10,382 bases of DNA from Candidatus Odinarchaeia archaeon (GTDB taxonomy: Archaea > Asgardarchaeota > Odinarchaeia > Odinarchaeales > Odinarchaeaceae), in assembly GCA_029856525.1 (NCBI GenBank), contig JAHQXC010000048.1, positions 1 to 10,382 on the forward strand, in the 5' to 3' direction. Position numbers and translations under genes: made by a program. This document shows positions 1 to 10,382 of this stretch, one piece after another. The notes under the pieces are model-generated. The model did not search any database. It was not told the DNA's origin and worked only from the letters and a program-made list of their open reading frames with translations. Each line of letters starts with the position of its first letter. The stretch's first letter is position 1.

Positions 1-437
1 TCATATGTTACCGGCACCGCTCCGAAAAATTGGGCTATAGATATATATGGTGGATATGTAGGGCCAGGCATTAAAATCTCGTCTCCAGCTTCCGTTGCAG
101 CGGCTATCACGAATTGCAGTGCTTCTGAAACACCGTTTGTTACAAGCACATCTTCTGGAGCTAATCCGTTAATATTATTATATTTCTTCTCTTTTTCAAC
201 TATAGCTTTTCTCAGCTCTTCTACACCGTTAGAAGCGGAGTAACCGTTATAACCGTCGTCGATGGCTTTCTTAGCGGCTTCCCTGAAGATTTCAGGTGTT
301 TTAAAATCGTATGCGATAGGATCACCGATATTTAAATAAAGCATTTTTTTACCCTGTTTTTCAAGCTCCATAGCCACCGCGGCGACATCTCTAATAGCAT
401 ATGTGAGATTCCTTACTCTACTACTTATAAAAACCAC
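1..437 (-). CDS. alaA: PLP-dependent class I/II aminotransferase, AlaA/YfbQ (alanine/valine-type) family; 5' part only, runs off the window
   Basis: Not in the ORF track; translated by hand. GTG at 437, 6 nt after a GAGGTG SD, gives MVFISSRVRNLTYAIRDVAAVAMELEKQGKKMLYLNIGDPIAYDFKTP...GYSASNGVEELRKAI...VLVTNGVSEALQ...GDEILMPGPTYPPY. The Y(A)IR, LNIGDP, GxxELRxAI, TNGVSE and PxPxYPxY motifs are typical of AlaA-type aminotransferases. The frame is open to the window edge. Confidence 0.85.
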   Translation of the reverse strand, partial: MVFISSRVRNLTYAIRDVAAVAMELEKQGKKMLYLNIGDPIAYDFKTPEIFREAAKKAIDDGYNGYSASNGVEELRKAIVEKEKKYNNINGLAPEDVLVTNGVSEALQFVIAAATEAGDEILMPGPTYPPYISIAQFFGAVPVTY

Positions 438-504
438 TTTAAGCACCTCTCATTCATTTATGAAAACTAATTCATATTCCAGTTTACTTTTTCCAGGATA
501 TTAG

Positions 505-517
505 TATATAAGTTTTT
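505..517 (-). promoter_or_regulatory. Archaeal BRE+TATA promoter for the aminotransferase
   Basis: Minus strand AAAAAC-TTATATA about 70 nt upstream of the start. The identical 13-mer lies upstream of the 8735..8959 gene. Confidence 0.55.
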
Positions 518-592
518 AGTGTAATTGAACTATCATAACTTTAACAGAGGGACTCCGCTGAGTGAAGTTAAAACGCCTGCTAGTGGAAATAA

Positions 593-955
593 TTAATGAT
601 GGGGCCCGCCACTTTTAGCTATTATTTGAACGAATATTAATGTGAGACTTATCAAGAATAAAGTGCCTAGTTGATATCCATATATAAGCGTGGAGCACTT
701 TAATATAATATCTAATATTAACACTATAGTTGTTAAATTATAGCTGGTTTCTCTCCTCCCTAGAAGATAAGCGCTGTTAACGAATTGGACTCCGCCTAAA
801 ATAAGATATGCAACTCCAACCGCCACTGCAGCCTCAGCGGGTATCATAGAGGTTGAAGGATATAATATTAATACGGCGCCTGAGACTATGGTTAAAGCGC
901 CGAGGAAAAGCATGAATAACCCCATGCCACTATAGTATTTAGGGTGAACGTGCAT
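593..955 (-). CDS. Small integral membrane protein (about 4 TM), weak resemblance to HdeD/DUF308-type helical hairpins
   Basis: 120 aa, four hydrophobic segments. The pattern LGALTIVSGAVLILYP...VGVAYLILGGVQF recalls DUF308 (unverified). Has an ATG start and its own promoter-like element. Confidence 0.7.
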   Translation of the reverse strand: MHVHPKYYSGMGLFMLFLGALTIVSGAVLILYPSTSMIPAEAAVAVGVAYLILGGVQFVNSAYLLGRRETSYNLTTIVLILDIILKCSTLIYGYQLGTLFLISLTLIFVQIIAKSGGPHH

Positions 956-1005
956 ACTTTAATCTTCCACCTTTCAACCGTTATTCTGTTGTTCTCTATG
1001 AAACT

Positions 1006-1021
1006 CTATTTAATTCTTTCG
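1006..1021 (-). promoter_or_regulatory. BRE+TATA promoter for the 593..955 gene
   Basis: Minus strand CGAAAGAA-TTAAATAG, matching the archaeal BRE (cRnaA) plus TTAAATA box. Same architecture as the element at 7995..8010. Confidence 0.55.
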
Positions 1022-1043
1022 ACGATTCTTCTAATTTTACTGG

Positions 1044-1277
1044 TTAAGGTCTCCTCCACTGATTATATGCTAGCTGAATGTCACGGCTTGTCACCGTTTT
1101 CCGCTTAGAGTGAAGTGATAATTCCCCTGCTCTTCTTGCTATTTCTAATCCTATTTCTTCAAGTATTTTACCTAGCTCGCTTGCAGCTTTTTCAGATACT
1201 CGTTCAACTTTAGCTTTTCTTATTAATCTATCTAAAGGCGCTAAAGGTATTATTCTCTCAGCTTTTTCTTTAGGCAT
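1044..1277 (-). CDS. Archaeal histone (HMfA/HMfB-like histone fold) with a short basic N-terminal extension
   Basis: IPLAPLDRLIRK..ERVS..A...L.KILEE.G..IA..A..L..H..RKTV...DI.LA aligns without gaps to HMfB (LPIAPIGRIIKDAGAERVS...LARHAGRKTIKAEDIELA). R10, R19, L46, H49, R52, K53, T54, D59 and L62 are retained. AGGTGA SD is present. Confidence 0.95.
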   Translation of the reverse strand: MPKEKAERIIPLAPLDRLIRKAKVERVSEKAASELGKILEEIGLEIARRAGELSLHSKRKTVTSRDIQLAYNQWRRP

Positions 1278-1312
1278 TATATCACCTAACTTAAATTCCT
1301 ATTTTAATATTA

Positions 1313-1328
1313 GATATAAATTTTTCTT
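1313..1328 (-). promoter_or_regulatory. BRE+TATA promoter of the histone gene
   Basis: Minus strand AGAAAAA-(A)TTTATATC about 36 nt upstream of the ATG, followed by an AGGTGA SD at 1287..1282. Confidence 0.6.
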
Positions 1329-1390
1329 ATTTATAGAAAAATATTTTTAACCTTGCTGATCAGCTTAAACTCTTAAACTATTTGAAGATT

Positions 1391-1936
1391 TTAGATTAAA
1401 AATACTAGTGAGCTTCCTAACAATAATAGTATTCCTTGAGCGATGCAGAAGAATCCTAGAATCACTGAGACAGCCGGGTAGCCTAGTATTTTTCCAAGGA
1501 AATCTAGTACTTCTTCGACAGCTTTAGCGAATATGAATATAACCGCTACTATAACTATGAATACAGCGGCTATCACCCATGTATTATGGATGAAACCTGA
1601 CACATAGAAAGCTGCAACCCCCCCTACTCCTAAAGCTAGAAGCCCTGCTAGAGGGAGTTGAACTGTAGGAGCTAAAGTTAACGCTAAGCCAGCTAATATA
1701 AAGAGGACTATTGTAGCCGTGTCCATTATTCCTCGACTCCACCCGGAGGCTACTACTATTAAATCTATTATTCCTAATATGAATCCGACTGCAGCTAGTA
1801 GTTTAAGCTTCCATTTCCATTCATTTTTACTCTCCTTCCACTCTAAGATATCTAGTAGGAGGATGAACCCTGATATTATTAGTATAATGTTAGCGTAGTT
1901 TACAAGCGTGGTAAGCGTGGATATGATGTCTAGCAT
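1391..1936 (-). CDS. Polytopic membrane protein of unknown function (about 6 TM)
   Basis: Track ORF 1391..1945. The GTG at 1945 is part of an AGGTGA SD lying 5 nt before the ATG at 1936, which is the preferred start. Mostly hydrophobic, with one charged loop (EWKESKNEWKWKLK). No family recognised. Confidence 0.75.
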   Translation of the reverse strand: MLDIISTLTTLVNYANIILIISGFILLLDILEWKESKNEWKWKLKLLAAVGFILGIIDLIVVASGWSRGIMDTATIVLFILAGLALTLAPTVQLPLAGLLALGVGGVAAFYVSGFIHNTWVIAAVFIVIVAVIFIFAKAVEEVLDFLGKILGYPAVSVILGFFCIAQGILLLLGSSLVFLI

Positions 1937-2017
1937 TGGAGTCACCTAAATTTTATGTACAATTTTAAAATGCTGCTAGTATAATAATTTATCCAGTTGA
2001 AAATTTAAACTATAATT

Positions 2018-3667
2018 TTATCGTTTCAAAAGTTTTTCATAATATTGTTCAGCGTATTTTTTAAGATATCCTTTAACTTTTATTTCAGGTTTAACCCATT
2101 TTCTTTTTCTTTTCACCAATTCTTCTTCTTCAACTAGTAGATCTAGCCTTCTGTTAGGGATGTCTATTTTAATTAAATCACCGTTTTCTACAAGACTTAT
2201 AGGTCCACCTAAAGCCGCTTCAGGTGAAACATGGCCTATGCATAATCCTCTGGTTCCGCCTGAGAACCTTCCATCCGTTACAAGCGACACTTCTTTATCC
2301 ATACCTCGACCTACTAGATTAGCTGTAGGTGATAGCATTTCCCTCATCCCAGGTCCGCCTATAACTCCTTCATATCTTATCACAACAACGTCTTTAGGTT
2401 TTATTTCACCTTTACATATCGCTTCATTAGCCTCTTCCTCAGAGTTGTAAACTCTCGCAGGTCCTATGTGAACCATGCTTTCAGGACTTACAGCCGTCTG
2501 TTTTACCACAGCCCCTTCAGGTGCTAAACTCCCTTTTAAAACAGCTATTCCCCCTTCTCTATGATACGGGTTTTTTAGAGGTCTTATAATATTCTCATCT
2601 ATTACTTTAAAATCATCTATAAGCTCTTTTAACCTTCTACCCGTAACCCCGATAGTGTCAAGGTTTAATAGACTTTTAAGCTGTTTAAGAAGCGCCGGGA
2701 CCCCGCCAGCTTTCTCCATATCCCACATAGTATACGGTCCCCCTGGTCTAAGATTCACTAGATGCGGGGTTGTTCTACCGAAGTAGTCGAATTCATCTAT
2801 TTCTATTTTAATATTCAGTTCTTCAGCTATCGCCGGTAAATGTATAGTTGTATTGGTTGATCCGCCTATAGCCATATCGACTCTAATCGCGTTTTCGAAA
2901 GCTTCTCTTGTAAGTATATCTGAAGGCTTTAAATCCTCTTTTACAAGGTTTACGACTCTAACACCTGAGTCATATGCGATTCTAAGCTTTTTAGCTTGAA
3001 CTGCATGAGCTGTCCCGCAGCCTGGAAGAGACATACCGAGGGTTTCTGTTAGACACGCCATCGTGTTCGCGGTGAAACATCCTGCGCAGCTTCCAGGACC
3101 AGGACAGGCTGAGTTTTCAAGCTCTTTAAGCTCCTCTAAGCTTATTAACTTCTTCTGATAGGCTCCGACGGCTTCGAAAACAGATATAACATCCACAGAG
3201 TTACCTTTAAAAACCCCCGGCATCATAGGACCGCCTGTTACAATGATGCTTGGAATATTCAATCTGGCGGCTGCTATTAAATGGCCTGGGACAATTTTAT
3301 CACATGATGAAATTAACACCATGCCGTCGAATTGGTGAGCTTGCACCATAAGTTCAACCGAATCCGCTATTAGATCCCTGCTGGGGAGAGACATTTTCAT
3401 GCCCATATGCCCCATGGCGATGCCATCGCATATGCCGATAGTGTTAAACTCTATCGGTGTCCCACCGGCTGAGCGTATACCCTCTTTAACTTTCTCGCTT
3501 ATAGTTTTAAGATGGATGTGGCCTGGAACTATTTCATTCCATGAGTTTGCGACAGCTATTAAAGGCTTATCGATTTCGTTATCTGTCAGCCCTGTCGCTT
3601 TTAGAAGAGCTCTATGAGGCGCTCTCTCCACGCCTTTTTTAATGTTATCGCTTCTCATCTCAGCCAC
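2018..3667 (-). CDS. ilvD: Dihydroxy-acid dehydratase
   Basis: Motifs [73 protein letters not shown]. The start could instead be the ATG at 3658. Confidence 0.98.
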
Positions 3668-3669
3668 GC

Positions 3670-4599
3670 TCAGTATACTGGTGTAAGCCAGTGAAGGTAT
3701 TTTTTATTTCTCCCGTAGACGACGTCTAAATACGTTCTCTGTATTTTTCTAGTTAGCTCACCTGGCGTGCCGTTCCCTATTATAGTTGAGTCGATTTTAA
3801 CTACAGGTGTAACCTCTCCAGCTGTCCCGCAGATAAATACTTCATCCGCCTTATATAATTCACTTCTCGTCAAGTCTGTGACTTTCACATCTATTTTCAA
3901 TTCGTTTTTAAACAGTTGAATTATCGTATCTCTTGTCACACCTTCTAGAATAGATGCGTATAAAGGTGGAGTGTAAACCTCCCCTTTTCTTATAATAAAA
4001 ATGTTTTCACCTGTTCCCTCGCTTATAAATCCTCTGTGATCTAGCATTATCGCCTCCGTGTAACCTTTCTCAACAGCCTCCAATCTGGCAAGCACCGAGT
4101 TAAGGTAGTTGCCGCATGCTTTAGCTTCAGGGGGTAGCGCTCTAGGGGAGATTCTCTCCCATGAGGAGACTAAACAACTTATCCCTTTCTCTAAAACCCC
4201 CTCCCCCAAGTATTCTTTGAAAGGTATCGCGTATATGGCTGCATTCACAGGGCTTTTTAAAGGATTTAATCCAAGCGGACCGTAGCCTCTATAAACTATC
4301 GGTCTTATATAACAGTTTTCTTTTATCTTATTCACTTTAATTATTTCTTTTATGGCTTGAGCGAATTCTTGTTGAGTATATGGTATGCTCATTCTATATA
4401 TTTTAGCTGAATAGTAGAGTCTTTCTAAATGCGCGTCTAAACGGAATATGTGAACGTTGTCATCGAACGCGTATCCTCTCAATCCCTCGAAAACCCCGGT
4501 TCCATAATGTAACGCATGTGTTTTCACATGTATTCTCGCTTCATCCCATTTAACTATTCTTCCATCCATCCAGATATAATCGGATTTTTCCTCTGACAT
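3670..4599 (-). CDS. ilvE: Branched-chain amino acid aminotransferase (PLP class IV)
   Basis: [26 protein letters not shown] (PLP lysine), [29 protein letters not shown]. Confidence 0.97.
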
Positions 4600-4636
4600 A
4601 TTTAACCCTCGTTAAAATATTGGAGAGGATTCTTTT

Positions 4637-5620
4637 TTACTCTAATCCGATTTCATGTCTAAGCTGGGAGCCGATTTTCTCTATAAGCCTGGCTTCTTCT
4701 CTAGATTTAAGCTCGTTGAGTTTACGGGATCCTCCCTGGTATTCTTTTATCCACTCATCTGCGAAACTTCCATCCTGTATTTCTTTTAATATCTTCTTCA
4801 TCTCCTCCCGTGTCTGCTTGTTTACCACTCTCGGCCCTCTTGTGAGACCACCGTATTTCGCAGTGTTACTTACAGCCTCCCACATTCCCTTTAAACCTTT
4901 AGCATAGATTAAATCCACTATTAATTTAACCTCGTGTAGACATTCGTAATAAGCCATTTCAGGCTGATACCCTGCTTCAACTAGAGTGTCGAAGCCGGCT
5001 TTTATAAGCTCAGTTAAACCCCCGCATAAAACAACCTGTTCGCCGAATAAATCTGTTTCAACCTCCTCTTTGAAAGTTGTTTCTATAACCTGTACACGAG
5101 TTAAACCTATCGCTTTAGCCATCGCTAAAGCTATTTTTTTAGCGTTACCCGAGTAATCCTGGGCTACTGCTAGTAGACCTGGAACACCGAAGTTATTCAA
5201 GTATTCTCTTCTAACAGCTTTGCCAGGGGCTTTAGGGGCGATCATTATTACGTCAACGTTTGTCGGCGGTATTATCTGTTTGAAATAAATGTTGAAAGCG
5301 TGACTGAACCCTAATACTTTTCCAGCGGTTAAATAGGGTTTAATCTCTTCTTCATAGACTTTTCTCTGAACTTCATCCGGTATGAGAATGTGAATTATAT
5401 CCGCTTTTTCAGTAGCCTCGCTTATAGATAACACTTTAAACCCATCTTTTTCAGCGGCTTCAGCTGTTTTACCTTTTCTAGCTCCTATAATCACTTTCAC
5501 GCCGCTGTCTCTCATATTCATGGCTTGCGCCATCCCCTGGTTTCCATAGCCGATCACGGCTACAGTCTTATTTTTTAAAACATTCAGATCAGCGTCTTTA
5601 TCAGTGTATTTTTTAACCAT
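4637..5620 (-). CDS. ilvC: Ketol-acid reductoisomerase, short-chain (class I)
   Basis: GYGNQG Rossmann motif, LIPDE, GFSHAFN, MIAPKAPG, EVETDLFGEQVVLCGG, MAYYECLHE, SNTAKYG. Strong AGGAGG SD. Confidence 0.98.
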   Translation of the reverse strand: MVKKYTDKDADLNVLKNKTVAVIGYGNQGMAQAMNMRDSGVKVIIGARKGKTAEAAEKDGFKVLSISEATEKADIIHILIPDEVQRKVYEEEIKPYLTAGKVLGFSHAFNIYFKQIIPPTNVDVIMIAPKAPGKAVRREYLNNFGVPGLLAVAQDYSGNAKKIALAMAKAIGLTRVQVIETTFKEEVETDLFGEQVVLCGGLTELIKAGFDTLVEAGYQPEMAYYECLHEVKLIVDLIYAKGLKGMWEAVSNTAKYGGLTRGPRVVNKQTREEMKKILKEIQDGSFADEWIKEYQGGSRKLNELKSREEARLIEKIGSQLRHEIGLE

Positions 5621-5634
5621 TTATTACCTTCCTC

Positions 5635-6111
5635 CTATTTTTTTAACGCGATGATTCCTGATCTAACTATCTCAGTTACATATTTCTGATCTATATGGTT
5701 TAAGATGTGATCTATTTCAGTGCTTGGACCGCTTATTTCTATAGCATATCCTTTAACATAGTTTACTAATGCAACGTTTGATTCTCTGGTTAACTGTTTG
5801 ATTTGTTCAAGAATATTTTCATGATGGTTTTTAAGTTTAATTATAACCAGCTCTCTTATAACAGCGTCATCGCTTTTTAACTGTGTTATTTTTTTAACTG
5901 CGATAAGTCTACTTAACAGGTTTCTCATAAACCTTGCTTTTTTAGGGTCAGCTTCGAAGCTTAATATTATTCTGGCGGTTCGCTCGCTTATCTCTGAGGG
6001 TCCTACTGAAATCCTGGATATGTTAACAGCTCTCCTACTGAATATTGAGACCACTCTCTGCATTACTCCAGGTTCATCATCTACTATAAGTGAGAATATG
6101 TATTGAGGCAT
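5635..6111 (-). CDS. ilvH: Acetolactate synthase regulatory (small, ACT-domain) subunit
   Basis: SLIVDDEPGVMQRVVSIFSRRAVNISRISVGPSE ACT motif, plus a C-terminal RELVIIKL...EIVRSGIIAL domain. Starts 4 nt after the ilvB stop, with a GGTGA SD inside the end of ilvB. Confidence 0.92.
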   Translation of the reverse strand: MPQYIFSLIVDDEPGVMQRVVSIFSRRAVNISRISVGPSEISERTARIILSFEADPKKARFMRNLLSRLIAVKKITQLKSDDAVIRELVIIKLKNHHENILEQIKQLTRESNVALVNYVKGYAIEISGPSTEIDHILNHIDQKYVTEIVRSGIIALKK

Positions 6112-6115
6112 TTTA

Positions 6116-7786
6116 TCACCCTATCATTTTATCTATCTGTCCGCCAGGCCTCACCATGGGGAATACATTGCATTCTCTGTCTACTTCGAAATCTATAACT
6201 GTTGTCTCCCCTGATCTTATAGCTGTGATGAAGGCTTCTTCTATTTCACTGCATCTTGTTACTTTAATACCTTTAGCGCCGAAAGCTTCCGCTAATTTAA
6301 CGAAATCTGTTTTTTCTCCTAGAAAAGTGTACGAGTATCTTTTCTCATAGAATAACTCCTGCCATTGTCTTACCATCCCTAGATATCTGTTGTTTATTAT
6401 GGCGACCACTACAGGTATATTGTTTTCCACTGATGTGGCAAGCTCATGGCACATCATGAGAAAACTACCGTCGCCTGCTATATCAACGACTGTGCTTTCA
6501 GGTTTAGCTGTTTTAGCTCCTATAGATGCAGGTAACCCGAAGCCCATTGTCCCCTGCCCGCCTGAGAATAACACTGTTCTAGGTTTTCTCGGTTTATAGT
6601 AGAGCGCCGCCCACATTTCACATTGACCAACCTCGGTGGCTACGATGTCATTTTCTTTTAAAATAGAGTTCATTTTCTTTATTATTAAAGGCGGTTTAAT
6701 CGGATGTGTTTCCTCAGGTTCAGGTAGCGGATACTCTCTGATCAGTTCTCTGACTCTCATCATCCAAGGTGTGTTCTCTTTTTTTAAACCAGATGTCTGC
6801 ATATAATAGATTAACGCTTTCAATACTTCTTTAGCGTCGCCTATTATTGAGAGATGGCTTTTAATATTTTTATCTATTTCAGATGGGTCTATATCTATGT
6901 GAATTATTTTAGCTTTAGAAGCGAATGTTTTCTCGTCGCCTGTCGCTCTATCATCGAATCTACAGCCTACAGCTATCAGGCAATCAGACTCCATCACAGC
7001 ATAGTTAGCGGGTTTAGTGCCATGCATCCCTATCATACCTAAAGATAGTGGATGATACTCTGATATAGCCCCCTTCCCCATAAGCGTGGTGACTACAGGC
7101 GCAGGTAACAGCTCGGCTAGGGTTCTTATTTCATCCGAGGAGTTCGAGATTATAACACCGCCGCCGGCTAATATCACCGGTCTCTCCGCGTTCATGATTA
7201 TATTAGCCGCCTGCTTAATTTTTCTAAGACTTAGAATAGGTGTCTTACCTGTATAGAATTGTTTGAAAACTATTCTTCGAGTGGTTTTTTTAGTCTGGAC
7301 ATCTTTAGGTAAATCTATGTGAACTGGGCCAGGGCGACCGGATAAAGCTATATCAAAAGCCATGTTCATTATCCTGGCCAGATCGTTGACGTCTTTAACC
7401 AGAAAGTTGTGTTTGGTAATAGGTATGACTAGACTGTAAAGGTCCGCTTCCTGGAAAGCGTCTTTACCGATGTATTGAACTGGAACCTGTCCTGTGATAG
7501 CGATTAAAGGTGATGAATCCGCGTAAGCGGTGGATATGCCTGTTAAAAGATTTGTAGCCCCAGGTCCGGAGGTTGCTATAGCCACGCCAGGTCCTCCTGT
7601 AACCCGCGCATACCCGTCAGCTGCATGCGCTGCAGCCTGTTCATGTCTCACTAGTATATGTCTAATAGATGTTTCATCGTATAATTCATCGTATAATGGC
7701 ATTATAGCTCCGCCTGGAAGCCCGAAAACCGTCTTCACACCTCTAGATTTAAGAACCTCTAAGACTACTTCAGAACCACTTAACAT
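6116..7786 (-). CDS. ilvB: Acetolactate synthase large (catalytic, ThDP/FAD) subunit
   Basis: VFGLPGGAIMPLYD, RHEQAAAHAADGYAR, TSGPGATN, TGQV, DAFQE, GRPGPV, GMIGMHG, RFDDR and the ThDP motif GDGSF...NN. The ATG at 7786 (MLSGSE) is preferred over the GTG at 7798. Confidence 0.98.
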   Translation of the reverse strand: MLSGSEVVLEVLKSRGVKTVFGLPGGAIMPLYDELYDETSIRHILVRHEQAAAHAADGYARVTGGPGVAIATSGPGATNLLTGISTAYADSSPLIAITGQVPVQYIGKDAFQEADLYSLVIPITKHNFLVKDVNDLARIMNMAFDIALSGRPGPVHIDLPKDVQTKKTTRRIVFKQFYTGKTPILSLRKIKQAANIIMNAERPVILAGGGVIISNSSDEIRTLAELLPAPVVTTLMGKGAISEYHPLSLGMIGMHGTKPANYAVMESDCLIAVGCRFDDRATGDEKTFASKAKIIHIDIDPSEIDKNIKSHLSIIGDAKEVLKALIYYMQTSGLKKENTPWMMRVRELIREYPLPEPEETHPIKPPLIIKKMNSILKENDIVATEVGQCEMWAALYYKPRKPRTVLFSGGQGTMGFGLPASIGAKTAKPESTVVDIAGDGSFLMMCHELATSVENNIPVVVAIINNRYLGMVRQWQELFYEKRYSYTFLGEKTDFVKLAEAFGAKGIKVTRCSEIEEAFITAIRSGETTVIDFEVDRECNVFPMVRPGGQIDKMIG

Positions 7787-7837
7787 ATTTAAAAACACTC
7801 TCCGAAAGAATATGCTGATTAAAAATTAATATGGTTG

Positions 7838-7972
7838 AAAAAACACGGTTTAAATTATAGATTGGAGGACCATGTTTAAGCGTGTAAAGTTCTCTCCACG
7901 ATAAAATAATCCCCCTTATCCAGGGGATTGACAAAGCTAGTCCTCCTTGAAGCCTCCACCGTTATCACACCC
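7838..7972 (-). ncRNA. Candidate structured cis-regulatory leader RNA of the ilv operon
   Basis: Hand-folded: a 9-bp closing stem (7946-7938 with 7872-7864) encloses two hairpins (7929-7908 and 7900-7881), followed by a U6 tract at 7843-7838. GC is about 48% versus about 23% in the following 77 nt (hand count). I see no match to any riboswitch family I know. Confidence 0.5.
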
Positions 7973-7994
7973 GGTTAAAAATAATTTAAATTCT

Positions 7995-8010
7995 ATATTT
8001 AACTTTTTCG
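7995..8010 (-). promoter_or_regulatory. BRE+TATA promoter of the ilv operon, overlapping the stop codon of the upstream gene
   Basis: Minus strand CGAAAAAG-TTAAATAT. Standard spacing predicts a TSS near G7972, about 185 nt before the ilvB ATG. Confidence 0.6.
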
Positions 8011-8577
8011 CACTCTACTAGGCTTAATTAACTTACCAGCCTGTTTTATTTTTCTTCTATTCATTGAATCCGCTTTTTTAGAGATTTTTAAAAATAAGTA
8101 TGCTTGAATTAGCAGTGCAGCTATCATTATAACCGTGCCTGCTATTGAATAAACTATGTATAATATTATAGAAGCTAACATGAGGCTTGCTGTAGCTGTT
8201 AAAAACACTCTCCCCTCCTCTTCCCTGTTAACCTCTTTAACCGCTATGTAAAGCATTAAACTCCATGTAACCACGTATACGATGAGCGGTGCTATTGTAA
8301 ATAATGTTAACAGGTTAACGGCTGATAGTATGTTTGAAACTGTTTCAACACCGGTTATGACATTAGATGATAAAAGGAGAAGAAGGCTAGCTCTAATTAT
8401 TTGAAGAGAAGCGTTTAACATTATATACCATAGTAAACCTTTCAAGAAAACCCTGGTTTTCCCGGTATCTGAGAGCAGATACTCTTCGGATACCGTGATC
8501 TTATAGCTTGAATATATTATGAAAAGCGTTAATGTTTCAAAGCTCACCAGTAATAGTAGAATAAGGCTTGATAGCAT
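7999..8577 (-). CDS. Polytopic membrane protein of unknown function (5-6 TM) with a basic C-terminal tail
   Basis: 192-aa ORF with alternating hydrophobic helices and a K/R-rich tail (KISKK...RRKIKQAGKLIKPSRVRKS). No family recognised. Confidence 0.75.
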   Translation of the reverse strand: MLSSLILLLLVSFETLTLFIIYSSYKITVSEEYLLSDTGKTRVFLKGLLWYIMLNASLQIIRASLLLLLSSNVITGVETVSNILSAVNLLTLFTIAPLIVYVVTWSLMLYIAVKEVNREEEGRVFLTATASLMLASIILYIVYSIAGTVIMIAALLIQAYLFLKISKKADSMNRRKIKQAGKLIKPSRVRKS

Positions 8578-8734
8578 GTTAGAATAATGGAGGGGGGTTA
8601 CAAGAAATATAAGCTGTATTAAAGCATCTCCTATGCTAGCGAGAAAACCGTTAACTATTTTTTTAACGCTTGGCGAAAACTCTTCTTTTATTAAAAACCC
8701 CTCTTATAATATTTTTTATTGTAAGCTTCAAATT

Positions 8735-8959
8735 TTAAGAGTGGCTGGGAATATTATTATCTTTCCCCTCGTTTCCACCGTTAAGCTTATTGGCAACGCT
8801 TAACTGTAAGGCGATGTTATCTATCTCACGGTCGAATTTTACAAGGGGGCATAACACATATACGCATAAACCGTTCTCTTTAAGTTTACAGTTCTCTTCC
8901 ATCCTATTTTTACAATTCTGTTTAAAATTAAGCCACTCTTCGAAGTCTCTTATATCCAC
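8735..8959 (-). CDS. Small four-cysteine protein, possible metal-binding (C-x7-C-x7-C-x4-C)
   Basis: 74 aa with a GTG start, a purine-rich GGCGGAG upstream, and its own BRE/TATA at 9011..9026. Confidence 0.6.
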   Translation of the reverse strand: MDIRDFEEWLNFKQNCKNRMEENCKLKENGLCVYVLCPLVKFDREIDNIALQLSVANKLNGGNEGKDNNIPSHS

Positions 8960-9010
8960 TTCTCATCTCCGCCCTTTATTAAATAACAGTTAAATAAGTT
9001 TAATATTCTT

Positions 9011-9026
9011 TTATATAAGTTTTTTT
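9011..9026 (-). promoter_or_regulatory. BRE+TATA promoter for the 8735..8959 gene
   Basis: Minus strand AAAAAAAC-TTATATAA, sharing a 13-mer with the element at 505..517. Confidence 0.55.
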
Positions 9027-9148
9027 AACTTCGCCGCCAGGATGACTGCTAACAGTCTTATATAAAGGATGCTAGGCTCGGGCTGCTCTAAGATACCTGT
9101 GGAGAGTAAGCCTGTATTTAATACTCCTGTAAAAGATAGGTGGTTCAC
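9011..9148 (-). CDS. Possible 45-aa microprotein with three T-G-[VLI]-L-x repeats and a hydrophobic/basic C-terminus
   Basis: Below the ORF-track cutoff. Hand translation from the GTG at 9148: MNHLSFTGVLNTGLLSTGILEQPEPSILYIRLLAVILAAKLKKLI*. The repeats vary at synonymous sites. No clear SD. Confidence 0.3.
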   Translation of the reverse strand: MNHLSFTGVLNTGLLSTGILEQPEPSILYIRLLAVILAAKLKKLI

Positions 9149-9229
9149 GCCACAGTGTTCTTTAGCAATCGACTTATTAAGGATAAACGTAGATAAATAT
9201 TTATAGATATTTTTTAAGTGTGGTCGAAT

Positions 9230-9763
9230 ATGGCTGGAAAAGAATCTTTAATAAGTTTCGAGAATCTTCTATCAGATCTTCTTAAAGGTGTAGCTGGCCT
9301 TCAAAAAATGATTGAAGAGCTTAACCGAAATTTAATCGCCTCTCAGGAGGCTAAAATGGAGTCTATTCTCAGCCGATTAGATCAATTAGAGACGTATTTT
9401 CAATCTATGAAAGAGTCGACTGAGCTTTTAAATGAATTATTAGCAGAGTTAAGGTTTTTAGTTCCAACCCTTCACTTAAATAAGTTAATTGAAGAAGTTA
9501 AGTCATCGCTCACCCAGGTTAAGAGGGAGACTCCTGTTTCAACTCTTTCCGCTACTGCTCGAATACCTACCAGGCCTCCTCCTATCTCAGAGGAATCGCA
9601 GCTTAAGCCTCAATCAACTTTAGAATCTGATGTTCCGGCGGCTTCTAGTGATAGGAAAGAACCGGATATAGTTTACAGTTCGAAGGTCCCCTCCTATATA
9701 AAGGAGAAGAGGAAGCCTAAGTCAATATGGGAGGGGATTCGAGAGGAGGATGAGTCTACTTAA
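9230..9763 (+). CDS. Hypothetical protein: N-terminal coiled-coil/helical domain, Pro/Ser-rich disordered linker, short C-terminal W-acidic motif
   Basis: Track ORF 9218..9763. The ATG at 9230 lies about 30 nt after TTTATAGA (9200-9207), consistent with a leaderless transcript. Heptad-like Leu periodicity over about 95 residues. Confidence 0.75.
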   Translation: MAGKESLISFENLLSDLLKGVAGLQKMIEELNRNLIASQEAKMESILSRLDQLETYFQSMKESTELLNELLAELRFLVPTLHLNKLIEEVKSSLTQVKRETPVSTLSATARIPTRPPPISEESQLKPQSTLESDVPAASSDRKEPDIVYSSKVPSYIKEKRKPKSIWEGIREEDEST

Positions 9764-9770
9764 TTAACCT

Positions 9771-10172
9771 CTATATTTTTCGCTCTAGTAAATCTGTTAG
9801 AAGCCTGCTTAAACTACTTAACTCTACAAGCCAGGCGATTGTTTTAAATTCTTTATAGAGTTTTCTAATTAAATTAACTATCTCCTTATTATCTTGCGCG
9901 AGTATCTTGGATAAAGTGTTTCGGAATTCCTCAATCCAGCGCTGTTCTGCTAATGTTAGCTTGTTAACAAGATTTTTTCTAAACTCTTCTCCGCTCTGTT
10001 CTATGCTGGATAGTTTTGTTTTAATGGTTATAGATTTCTCCTTTAACTCAGCTGTAAGTGTTTCTATGGAAGCGGTTAGAGAGTTTAAACTGGCTGATAT
10101 TTGATCTATCTTATTATATATGTCTGATAATGCTTGTGTTATGAATTTAACCGTTTCCTGAGAGCTTGTAAT
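9771..10172 (-). CDS. 133-aa coiled-coil protein with an apparent ATT start codon (absent from the ORF track)
   Basis: Open frame 10184..9771 with no in-frame ATG/GTG/TTG. GGAGG SD sits 7 nt before the ATT at 10172. Product: MTSSQETVKFITQALSDIYNKIDQISASLNSLTASIETLTAELKEKSITIKTKLSSIEQSGEEFRKNLVNKLTLAEQRWIEEFRNTLSKILAQDNKEIVNLIRKLYKEFKTIAWLVELSSLSRLLTDLLERKI*. It stops 7 nt from the convergent gene's stop. Confidence 0.8.
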   Translation of the reverse strand: MTSSQETVKFITQALSDIYNKIDQISASLNSLTASIETLTAELKEKSITIKTKLSSIEQSGEEFRKNLVNKLTLAEQRWIEEFRNTLSKILAQDNKEIVNLIRKLYKEFKTIAWLVELSSLSRLLTDLLERKI

Positions 10173-10184
10173 ATTAAACCCTCC

Positions 10185-10382
10185 TTATTTTAATTTATTA
10201 AGAGCTGTCTTCAACTCTTTGAAAATGCTTGGAATATCTATTTTCTGAAGCTCCTCGCTTAAGGTTTCAGTTATTTTATCTGTTTTCTCCACTATATCTT
10301 CAAGCTTATTTATGTCGAAGATTATTTTTATACTATCCACGCTATCCATTAAATTTTTTATTAAGAAATCTGTTTGCTGCTC
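10185..10382 (-). CDS. 3' end of a helical/coiled-coil hypothetical protein (5' part outside the window)
   Basis: Open frame from the window edge: EQQTDFLIKNLMDSVDSIKIIFDINKLEDIVEKTDKITETLSEELQKIDIPSIFKELKTALNKLK*. The TAA is at 10187..10185, immediately followed by the SD of the next gene. Confidence 0.75.
   Translation of the reverse strand, partial: EQQTDFLIKNLMDSVDSIKIIFDINKLEDIVEKTDKITETLSEELQKIDIPSIFKELKTALNKLK

Follow-up and report, generated by a model that had tools for sequence, protein, structure and literature searches.

Sensing of amino acids by the ribosome, through leader peptides, is a textbook bacterial mechanism. In the attenuators of bacterial ilv operons, such as ilvL and ivbL of Escherichia coli and the ilvBNC leader of Corynebacterium glutamicum (PMC11857589), a short leader frame with codons for the pathway products adjoins a hairpin, and the ribosome senses charged transfer RNA (tRNA). 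At the +1 frameshift site of bacterial release factor 2 (RF2, prfB; PMC5009743), a short zero frame contains an internal stimulator resembling a Shine-Dalgarno (SD) sequence, located 5' of an NUU_N shift codon (CUU_U or UUU_U) and accompanied by a slow A site and a nearby zero-frame stop, with the product or effector encoded in the +1 frame. Hungry codons favour +1 shifts, and the same review knows of no productive use of hungry-codon frameshifting (PMC5009743). In the leader open reading frame (ORF) of ermC, a stall, or a ketolide-induced frameshift past the leader stop, unfolds the structure of the messenger RNA (mRNA) of the next gene and switches this gene on (PMC5009743). In translationally coupled pairs of an upstream ORF (uORF) and a main ORF, the uORF stop overlaps or abuts the main start; in Haloferax, coupling by termination and reinitiation needs an overlap or a gap of less than about 20 nucleotides (nt) (PMC10666635), and coupling uORFs are common in bacteria (PMC13285730). 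Here, we describe the leader of the ilvBHCED operon of a Candidatus Odinarchaeia archaeon, contained in a stretch of 10,382 nt (the window: GenBank assembly GCA_029856525.1, contig JAHQXC010000048.1, positions 1 to 10,382). The leader has points in common with each of these systems and is proposed to be a two-frame leader sensed by the ribosome. Asgard archaea are among the closest prokaryotic relatives of eukaryotes; the Asgard lineage studied here keeps a two-frame leader on its ilv operon, with matching mini-frames on leuA and on a gene related to that for citramalate synthase (CimA-like gene). In the literature searched, no report of ribosome-mediated amino-acid sensing in archaea was found.

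The leader is located on the minus strand, in the 213-nt gap between a 192-residue ORF (stop at 7999) and ilvB. The window lies on contig C80 of a genome (G000) of 1.32 Mb, which is 93% complete and contains an archaeal 16S ribosomal RNA (rRNA); other genomes and loci are given by their G and L numbers where they have to be told apart. From the promoter to the first gene, the features are:

7995-8010, minus strand: promoter box CGAAAAAGTTAAATAT, with B recognition element (BRE) and TATA box
7964-7972, minus strand: SD-like box of ORF-A, GGGUGUGAU
7876-7959, minus strand: ORF-A, the proposed sensor frame, with a GTG start, 27 codons and a TAA stop
7930-7946, minus strand: module 1, made up of GGAGG, 6 nt, UUU (7935-7933) and the Val codon GUC (7932-7930)
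7770-7934, minus strand: ORF-B, 54 codons, in the +1 frame relative to ORF-A
7908-7929, minus strand: hairpin (P2) AAUCCCCU-GGAUAA-GGGGGAUU, the 3' strand of which is the G-rich box of module 2
7900-7915, minus strand: module 2, made up of GGGGG, AUUAU, UUU (7905-7903) and the Ile codon AUC (7902-7900)
7838-7843, minus strand: U6 tract within ORF-B, a candidate archaeal oligo-U terminator
7825-7821, minus strand: U5 tract
7784-7803, minus strand: SD-like box of ilvB, GGAGAGUG, and the ATG start of ilvB (7786-7784)

Ten distinct Odinarchaeal ilvB leaders were compared, five from the genus of the window and five more distant ones, taken from the contigs of ilvB relatives. The two frames, their signals, the modules and the hairpin are conserved among them, and the same module is found at leuA and at the CimA-like gene. 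The order common to all ten is promoter box, SD-like GGUGAU or GGAGUGAU, NUG-GAG-G, GGAGG-NNU-NNN-UUUGUC, CCCC/GGGG hairpin and U-rich tail. The UUG at 7934-7932 overlaps module 1 and is the first codon of ORF-B. From this codon onwards, ORF-B is open in all ten leaders, for 50 to 69 codons, with two to eight stops in each of the other two frames. The probability of the frame being open, estimated by dinucleotide shuffling, is 0.009 to 0.061 per leader, and the product over six diverged lineages is 1.1e-10; the downstream leader sequence of these six is at random-level identity (0.49 to 0.59, versus a baseline of 0.53). The ORF-B stop is located between -4 and +26 nt from the ilvB start in all ten leaders and is never in frame with ilvB; in the window, the TGA at 7772-7770 leads to an overlap of 17 nt with the ilvB start. 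This is the disposition of the coupled pairs, with a uORF stop that overlaps or abuts the main start within termination-reinitiation range (the 20-nt rule, PMC10666635). The ORF-B peptide itself is weakly constrained: variable columns by codon position number 20, 14 and 18 of 27, the synonymous share is 0.20, versus 0.10 to 0.11 in the other frames, and no homologue of the peptide was found among 5.8 billion proteins. As ORF-B is kept open while its peptide is barely constrained, selection appears to act on the act of translation up to the ilvB start, which is the signature of a coupling uORF. Two other roles for ORF-B were ruled out, that of an N-terminal extension of ilvB, because the two are never in frame, and that of a functional small protein, because it is not conserved. 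Energies of SD duplexes were computed against the 16S rRNA tail of the genome itself, GGAUCACCUCCU, and range from -7.6 to -15.9 kcal/mol for ilvB across relatives. That the leader is translated and that ORF-B acts on ilvB is, in our view, very probable. Unlike the coupled pairs described, the Odinarchaeal leader adds an upstream, putative sensor frame, which overlaps the coupling frame.

This upstream frame, ORF-A, has an in-frame start 25 nt upstream of the UUG (28 nt in L044) and is open in all ten leaders, with a length of 19 to 27 codons; all insertions and deletions within it are multiples of three. Its SD duplex has an energy of -8.9 to -10.8 kcal/mol in nine of the ten leaders, while the values for random 20-mers have their median at -3.7 and their 5th percentile at -8.6. 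Module 1, as GGAGG-NNU-NNN-UUUGUC, is present in all ten leaders and is unique in the genome; it allows two readings, one as a +1 slip site and the other as a ribosome-binding site followed by a UUG start. Five to ten nt past the UUG, a hairpin with at least four G-C pairs begins in all ten leaders (in L044 as the variant GGCCC/GGGCC), the chance rate of such a hairpin being 0.4% per 37-mer. Measured from the A-site codon of module 1, the hairpin begins 0 to 5 nt downstream, a position at which known 3' stimulators of recoding are found. Module 2 is found in nine leaders, with an Ile codon in seven of them, a Leu codon (UUA) in L040 and a GUU-GUU Val variant in L041, and is absent from L044. 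Both modules would shift ribosomes into the ORF-B frame. The 13-mer GGGATTATTTTAT, which comprises the hairpin 3' strand and the ORF-A codons for G-D-Y-F-I, has exactly two copies in the genome, one in the ilvB leader and one at the start of the CimA-like gene. In the four genus genomes, 44 of the 48 columns of the leader core are invariant, versus 35% of the ilvB third codon positions, and the longest invariant run in 1.5 kb of ilvB coding sequence is 20 nt. The constraint on the core appears to exceed the need of one coding frame and fits overlapping constraints. What is conserved in the leader is, to judge from its sequence, a set of translation signals, namely SD-like boxes and start codons, two open frames that overlap, and a short hairpin.

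An alternative arrangement is that ORF-B is always translated and sets or boosts ilvB by coupling, with ORF-A and its cognate codons being incidental and control residing elsewhere, in a transcription factor or in enzyme feedback via IlvH. The strongest facts, the openness of ORF-B and its stop at the ilvB start, need no sensing, and a constitutive uORF also agrees with the barely constrained ORF-B peptide, with the abundance of coupling uORFs in bacteria (PMC13285730) and with the weak enrichment of branched-chain codons in the ORF-A tail. We consider it improbable, given that all lineages keep an ORF-A start and SD (the SD-like box in nine of ten leaders), that the invariant core goes beyond the need of one frame and that the A-site codon fits the pathway at ilvB and also, as described below, at the CimA-like gene, leuA and trpE.

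In the proposed two-frame mechanism, transcription would start about 25 nt past the conserved TATA box, with a predicted start near 7976-7972, and ribosomes would load on ORF-A via its own SD box, at the GTG at 7959. They would then meet module 1 (GUC, Val) and, after the hairpin, module 2 (AUC, Ile). With plentiful Val-tRNA or Ile-tRNA, ORF-A would be read to its stop a few codons on, leaving the rest of the leader untranslated. A hungry Val or Ile codon would lead to a pause, from which ribosomes would pass into ORF-B, the most likely route being a +1 slip like that at the RF2 site. The ribosomes on ORF-B would activate ilvB, either through termination-reinitiation or because they unfold the ribosome-binding site of ilvB, and could possibly also protect the growing transcript from terminating at the U-tracts. 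Inferred are the translation of ORF-A and ORF-B, the dependence of pausing on charged tRNA, the entry by +1 slippage and the direction in which ilvB responds. Sensing of branched-chain amino acids through ORF-A seems to us reasonably likely, while the full statement, a ribosome-sensed two-frame leader with entry into ORF-B by +1 frameshift, is a close call that we place just short of even.

Archaeal transcription terminates at oligo-U, which makes the U-tracts putative terminators. Within the genus, T4 to T6 are present at the place of U6, while the other lineages have T5 runs elsewhere in ORF-B. Neither a conserved terminator/antiterminator nor an alternative pairing was found across the ten leaders, in which the positions of the U-tracts vary; archaeal termination may do without a hairpin.

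The module is also found before a CimA-like gene, with an Ile codon, before leuA, with a Leu codon, and before trpE, with a Trp codon. In each case the gene is in the +1 frame and a zero-frame stop is located two codons on. The three sites in the window's own genome are:

contig C17, 1474-1497 of locus L069: CimA-like minigene M-R-D-Y-F-I-G-stop, 7 codons, overlapping the gene start
contig C14, about 2150-2345 of locus L068, minus strand: leuA, which passes NCBIfam equivalog NF002086
contig C99, 1814-1837 (215-238 of locus L094): trpE minigene M-G-N-Y-V-W-I-stop, with GUU-UGG and with trpE in the +1 frame

The LeuA/CimA-family gene on C17 has (R)-citramalate synthases as its closest named homologues. 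Its minigene is kept as M-(R/G)-(D/E)-(Y/H)-F-I-x-stop in six Odinarchaeal genomes, down to 68% protein identity (L069, L071, L072, L073, L092 and L093), with synonymous TAT/TAC (Tyr) and ATT/ATC (Ile) changes, and persists even when the main gene lacks a UUG start. A metagenome scan with the CimA-like protein returned only relatives of at most 51% identity. In four species (orthologues L095, L096 and L097), the leuA frame is free of ATG, GTG and TTG codons ahead of the FDTTLRDGEQ motif, and the stretch upstream of this motif contains changes that are synonymous in the leuA frame. A small frame upstream of leuA ends in W-R-N-x-F-L-x-stop-stop, and leuA is its +1 frame. The site, GGAGG-N6-UUU-CUC, has the same spacing as module 1 of ilvB, the +1 re-pairing of tRNA-Phe from UUU to UUC is perfect and the slip codon coincides with the N-terminus expected by the LeuA family profile. 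The first in-frame start cuts leuA of the window's own genome to 457 residues, into the HMGL domain. As the leuA frame is without a start codon, a shift at leuA would make the enzyme itself. It is likely that leuA in these genomes is mis-called by annotation, and if the proposal is true this annotation changes. In the trpE minigene, a single Trp codon is located two codons before the stop.

The codons match the products of the pathways: Val and Ile at ilvBHCED, Ile in the citramalate branch, Leu at leuA and Trp at trpE. Read in terms of the modules, no conserved feature of the leader is left without a role. The cassette, an SD-like box, 4 to 6 nt, UUU and a cognate codon, is proposed to be an amino-acid sensor. 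In the ilvB leader, a Val cassette followed by an Ile cassette would direct ribosomes into a +1 uORF, and this uORF would switch the operon on. The broader idea, that hungry sense codons serve Odinarchaeia as sites of programmed +1 frameshifting for the control of branched-chain, perhaps also tryptophan, biosynthesis, is put forward tentatively, as one we find somewhat more doubtful than not. If true, hungry-codon frameshifting would have its first productive use, and archaea their first amino-acid sensor based on the ribosome; should ribosomes enter the second frame by slipping +1 at a hungry codon, this would supply the productive example that the frameshifting literature reports as missing (PMC5009743).

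Searches of the genome for further sites gave the following. For the motif GGGA(1-2)TTAYKTT there are seven matches, versus six in a reversed control, so there is no enrichment, and four of the seven are within unrelated coding regions. A mini-frame MDYVGG-stop before a DNA-polymerase-like gene was judged to be due to chance.

Several observations weigh against a frameshift-based sensor. Each conserved ORF-A residue falls on a signal at the RNA level, so the ORF-A peptide provides no independent evidence. Val and Ile codons are present singly, at fixed places in ORF-A, and not as runs; ORF-A of L041 and L042 ends in short Ile/Leu/Val strings, while most leaders are without a run. The ORF-A tail is mildly enriched in Ile, Leu and Val (17 of 40 codons in six lineages by our own count, versus about 29% expected), and ORF-B itself is rich in codons for these three residues. 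Module 1 is a textbook ribosome-binding site (GGAGG, 7 nt, UUG), at which ORF-B could simply initiate. At ilvB, tRNA-Phe would re-pair imperfectly after a +1 shift, which retains two of three pairs on going from UUU to UUG or UUA; perfect re-pairing is limited to leuA (UUU to UUC) and L040 (UUU to UUU). The spacing between the SD and the shift codon is 4 to 6 nt, versus 3 nt at the bacterial RF2 site. The comparison of leuA covers four congeners only, and neither trpE nor its N-terminal domain was found in the congeners G001-G003. Eight matches with a long +1 frame came from a genome-wide scan for the module, and five of these eight are ordinary gene starts. The modules were defined post hoc, after being seen.

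The main rival is classical translational attenuation without frameshifting. ORF-B would initiate at the UUG, the hairpin would block the small subunit and a ribosome pausing or terminating on the Ile/Leu/Val codons of the ORF-A tail would free the UUG, after which ORF-B would couple to ilvB. The ribosome-binding site of the UUG is canonical and invariant, the place of the hairpin is fixed in all ten leaders and bacterial leaders of the ermC type are known to work in this manner (PMC5009743). The ORF-A stop is located 9 to 30 nt past the hairpin, so that in about half of the lineages a terminating ribosome would cover the hairpin 3' strand; in G000, G002 and L039, however, it is too far away to hold the hairpin open. 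Attenuation of this kind also leaves unexplained the invariant U before the UUG, and the presence of GGAGG-N6-UUU-codon ahead of leuA, a gene with UUC as its +1 codon and without a start codon in its own frame. We regard it as rather unlikely, if worth serious consideration, and retain +1 slippage as the preferred route into ORF-B.

When the leader is compared with the described systems, it shares with the attenuators of the ilvL/ivbL type a short ORF with a ribosome-binding site, the predicted ORF-A (in nine to ten of the ten leaders), as well as product codons next to a hairpin and the proposed use of the ribosome as the sensor of charged tRNA. Instead of the runs of regulatory codons, it has single Val and Ile codons, and it differs further in its second, long +1 frame, which reaches the first gene, and in its archaeal host. 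With the RF2 site it has in common the stimulator, present as GGAGG-N6-UUU in all ten leaders at module 1 and as a G-run, N4-5 and UUU at module 2, and the continuation in the +1 frame, with ORF-B being open to ilvB, and leuA, the CimA-like gene and trpE all in the +1 frame. Unlike in RF2, the putative slow A-site codon is a sense codon for an amino acid of the pathway and not a stop, and the spacer is 4 to 6 nt long and not 3. In addition, what occupies the +1 frame at ilvB is a uORF that is not conserved and would act on the next gene, while at leuA it would be the protein. In ermC, an antibiotic in the exit tunnel provides the signal in a bacterial host, and the shift is not driven by tRNA supply, in contrast to what is proposed for the ilv leader. 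With no codon runs, no conserved terminator/antiterminator pair found across the ten leaders, a sense codon as its putative slow codon and a uORF as its proposed effector, the leader is a member of neither the attenuators nor the RF2 sites as these are defined.

The first-pass annotation of the window had described the region 7838-7972 as a candidate riboswitch or attenuator, in which a three-way junction closed by P1 and containing P2 and P3 would respond to a branched-chain amino acid, a keto-acid, thiamine diphosphate (ThDP) or a binding protein, with guanosine tetraphosphate (ppGpp) as a further candidate ligand, and control read-through at U6. The elements that it has in addition to those listed above are:

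7946-7938 with 7872-7864, minus strand: P1
7864-7872, minus strand: 3' strand of P1, UGGUCCUCC, read as x-Pro-Pro codons in ORF-B
7900-7881, minus strand: P3

The promoter, P1, P2, P3, U6 and U5 are all located where they had been placed, and the GC contrast is real, with 44 to 54% at 7900-7974 versus 28 to 30% downstream. The junction is obtained in the centroid fold, and a GC-rich block followed by U-tracts is in line with a switch. However, the fold is no better than chance: the minimum-free-energy z-score of the junction is -1.46, with 18 of 200 dinucleotide shuffles folding equally well, and that of the whole leader is -0.49. In the five congeneric leaders, P1 is 82% paired, with zero compensatory changes and two uncompensated mismatches in G002, P3 is 50% paired, and P2 is 95% paired and nearly invariant. 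The mismatches in G002 are due to synonymous changes of Pro codons (CCT to CCG and CCA to CCC) in the ORF-B frame, at 7864-7872; that the changes which break P1 are synonymous in one frame pointed to translation. The five more distant leaders lack the P1 3' strand (CCUCC) and P3 while keeping the rest of the leader, and of the junction only a hairpin of the CCCC/GGGG type, of 4 to 5 base pairs, recurs in them, at the P2 position. With all ten leaders, RNAalifold recovered just three pairs of the P2 hairpin. The junction strands are not conserved, and the covariation in relatives that the annotation had called for is absent from the junction.

A match to a known family would have removed the novelty of such a switch. 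In Rfam 15, including the ykkC/ppGpp, T-box and leader families, no match at gathering score was found in the window or in the loci of eight relatives, so the claim of novelty stands on this side. A permissive Rfam search gave noise only (best match 22 bits, versus a cut-off of 63 bits); a C/D-box or other small RNA was rejected, the weak SNORD match of 17.6 bits being noise. No second copy of the junction region was found in the window's own genome, except for a 20-nt match at the CimA-like gene, and a metagenome scan with the pattern ACTAGCTTTGTCNATCCCCTG gave 0 hits. With the pattern GGAGGNNTNNNTTTGTC(N3-8)CCC, a search of 400 Asgard genomes gave matches in seven genomes outside the genus, comparable with the reversed-pattern control, and none of these is upstream of ilvB. 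Of the regulatory RNA that had been claimed, a conserved cis-regulatory ilv leader is upheld, and the ligand-binding junction is lost, being without covariation and with P1 and P3 genus-specific at best. The word attenuator fits in its broad sense, the likely sensor being a translating ribosome that reads the supply of charged tRNA and not an RNA pocket. Taken together, the earlier observation is partly confirmed and its interpretation partly supported. We hold a ligand-binding riboswitch to be highly improbable and suggest that it be dropped in favour of a translated two-frame sensor, probably based on frameshifting.

The CCUCC at 7864-7872 resembles an anti-SD sequence and is able to pair with module 1, and the Pro-Pro is kept in the genus. 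At best, it could be a genus-specific anti-SD partner, or extra lock, of module 1; it could also be a diprolyl pause site.

The promoter box (15 nt) is invariant in the four congeners and near-identical in L039-L042. In a loosened form, GAAANNGTTAWATA, it has two occurrences in the genome. The exact box, GAAAAAGTTAAATA (7995-8010), is kept across Odinarchaeal lineages, and the stop codon of the ORF at 7999-8577 falls within the ilv TATA box. The promoter box may carry information beyond BRE and TATA, for instance a regulator site. Archaeal amino-acid operons are under the control of Lrp-family proteins, and the invariant block and the promoter box might be bound by a trans-acting regulator, either a DNA-binding protein of the Lrp type, an RNA-binding protein or a small RNA, with the open frames being secondary. 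The exact promoter box, rare in the genome yet conserved across lineages, and the invariance of the core at the nucleotide level would agree with such an operator. We find it very unlikely: the conserved parts of the leader all coincide with translation signals, the hairpin is the one repeated or palindromic element resembling an operator that was seen, and the openness of ORF-B through unconserved sequence would be left unexplained.

The operon downstream of the leader contains, on the minus strand, ilvB (ATG at 7786-7784), ilvH, ilvC, ilvE and ilvD; Pfam upholds this gene order, which had been given in the first-pass annotation. Three ORFs of 181 to 192 residues in the window have no Pfam family (7999-8577 and 1391-1945 on the minus strand and 9218-9763 on the plus strand). 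Among the seven species genomes of the class in our collection, this ilvB and its leader are limited to the genus of the window (G000-G003), and a comparison of the leader DNA with 40 relatives gave matches in the three congeners only. Further Odinarchaeal ilvB lineages, with identities of 92, 83, 77, 76, 76 and 66%, came from the search of 5.8 billion proteins. At the Hodarchaeal ilvB locus, the upstream sequence is too short for a comparison of leaders. A second acetolactate-synthase-like paralogue, 34% identical to IlvB, is located in G001 (contig C1, 382088-383656; L038) and was not seen in the other three genus genomes at the threshold used. In a sister lineage with ilvB 61% identical (L046-L048), neither the Odinarchaeal leader motif nor a long uORF was found. 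These three loci share another element, CAAAATCCTTATTT, about 60 to 110 nt upstream of ilvB (gene start at 1501). In one frame, this element is read as Q-N-P-Y-F at the end of a small upstream ORF, and it may be an unrelated leader peptide.

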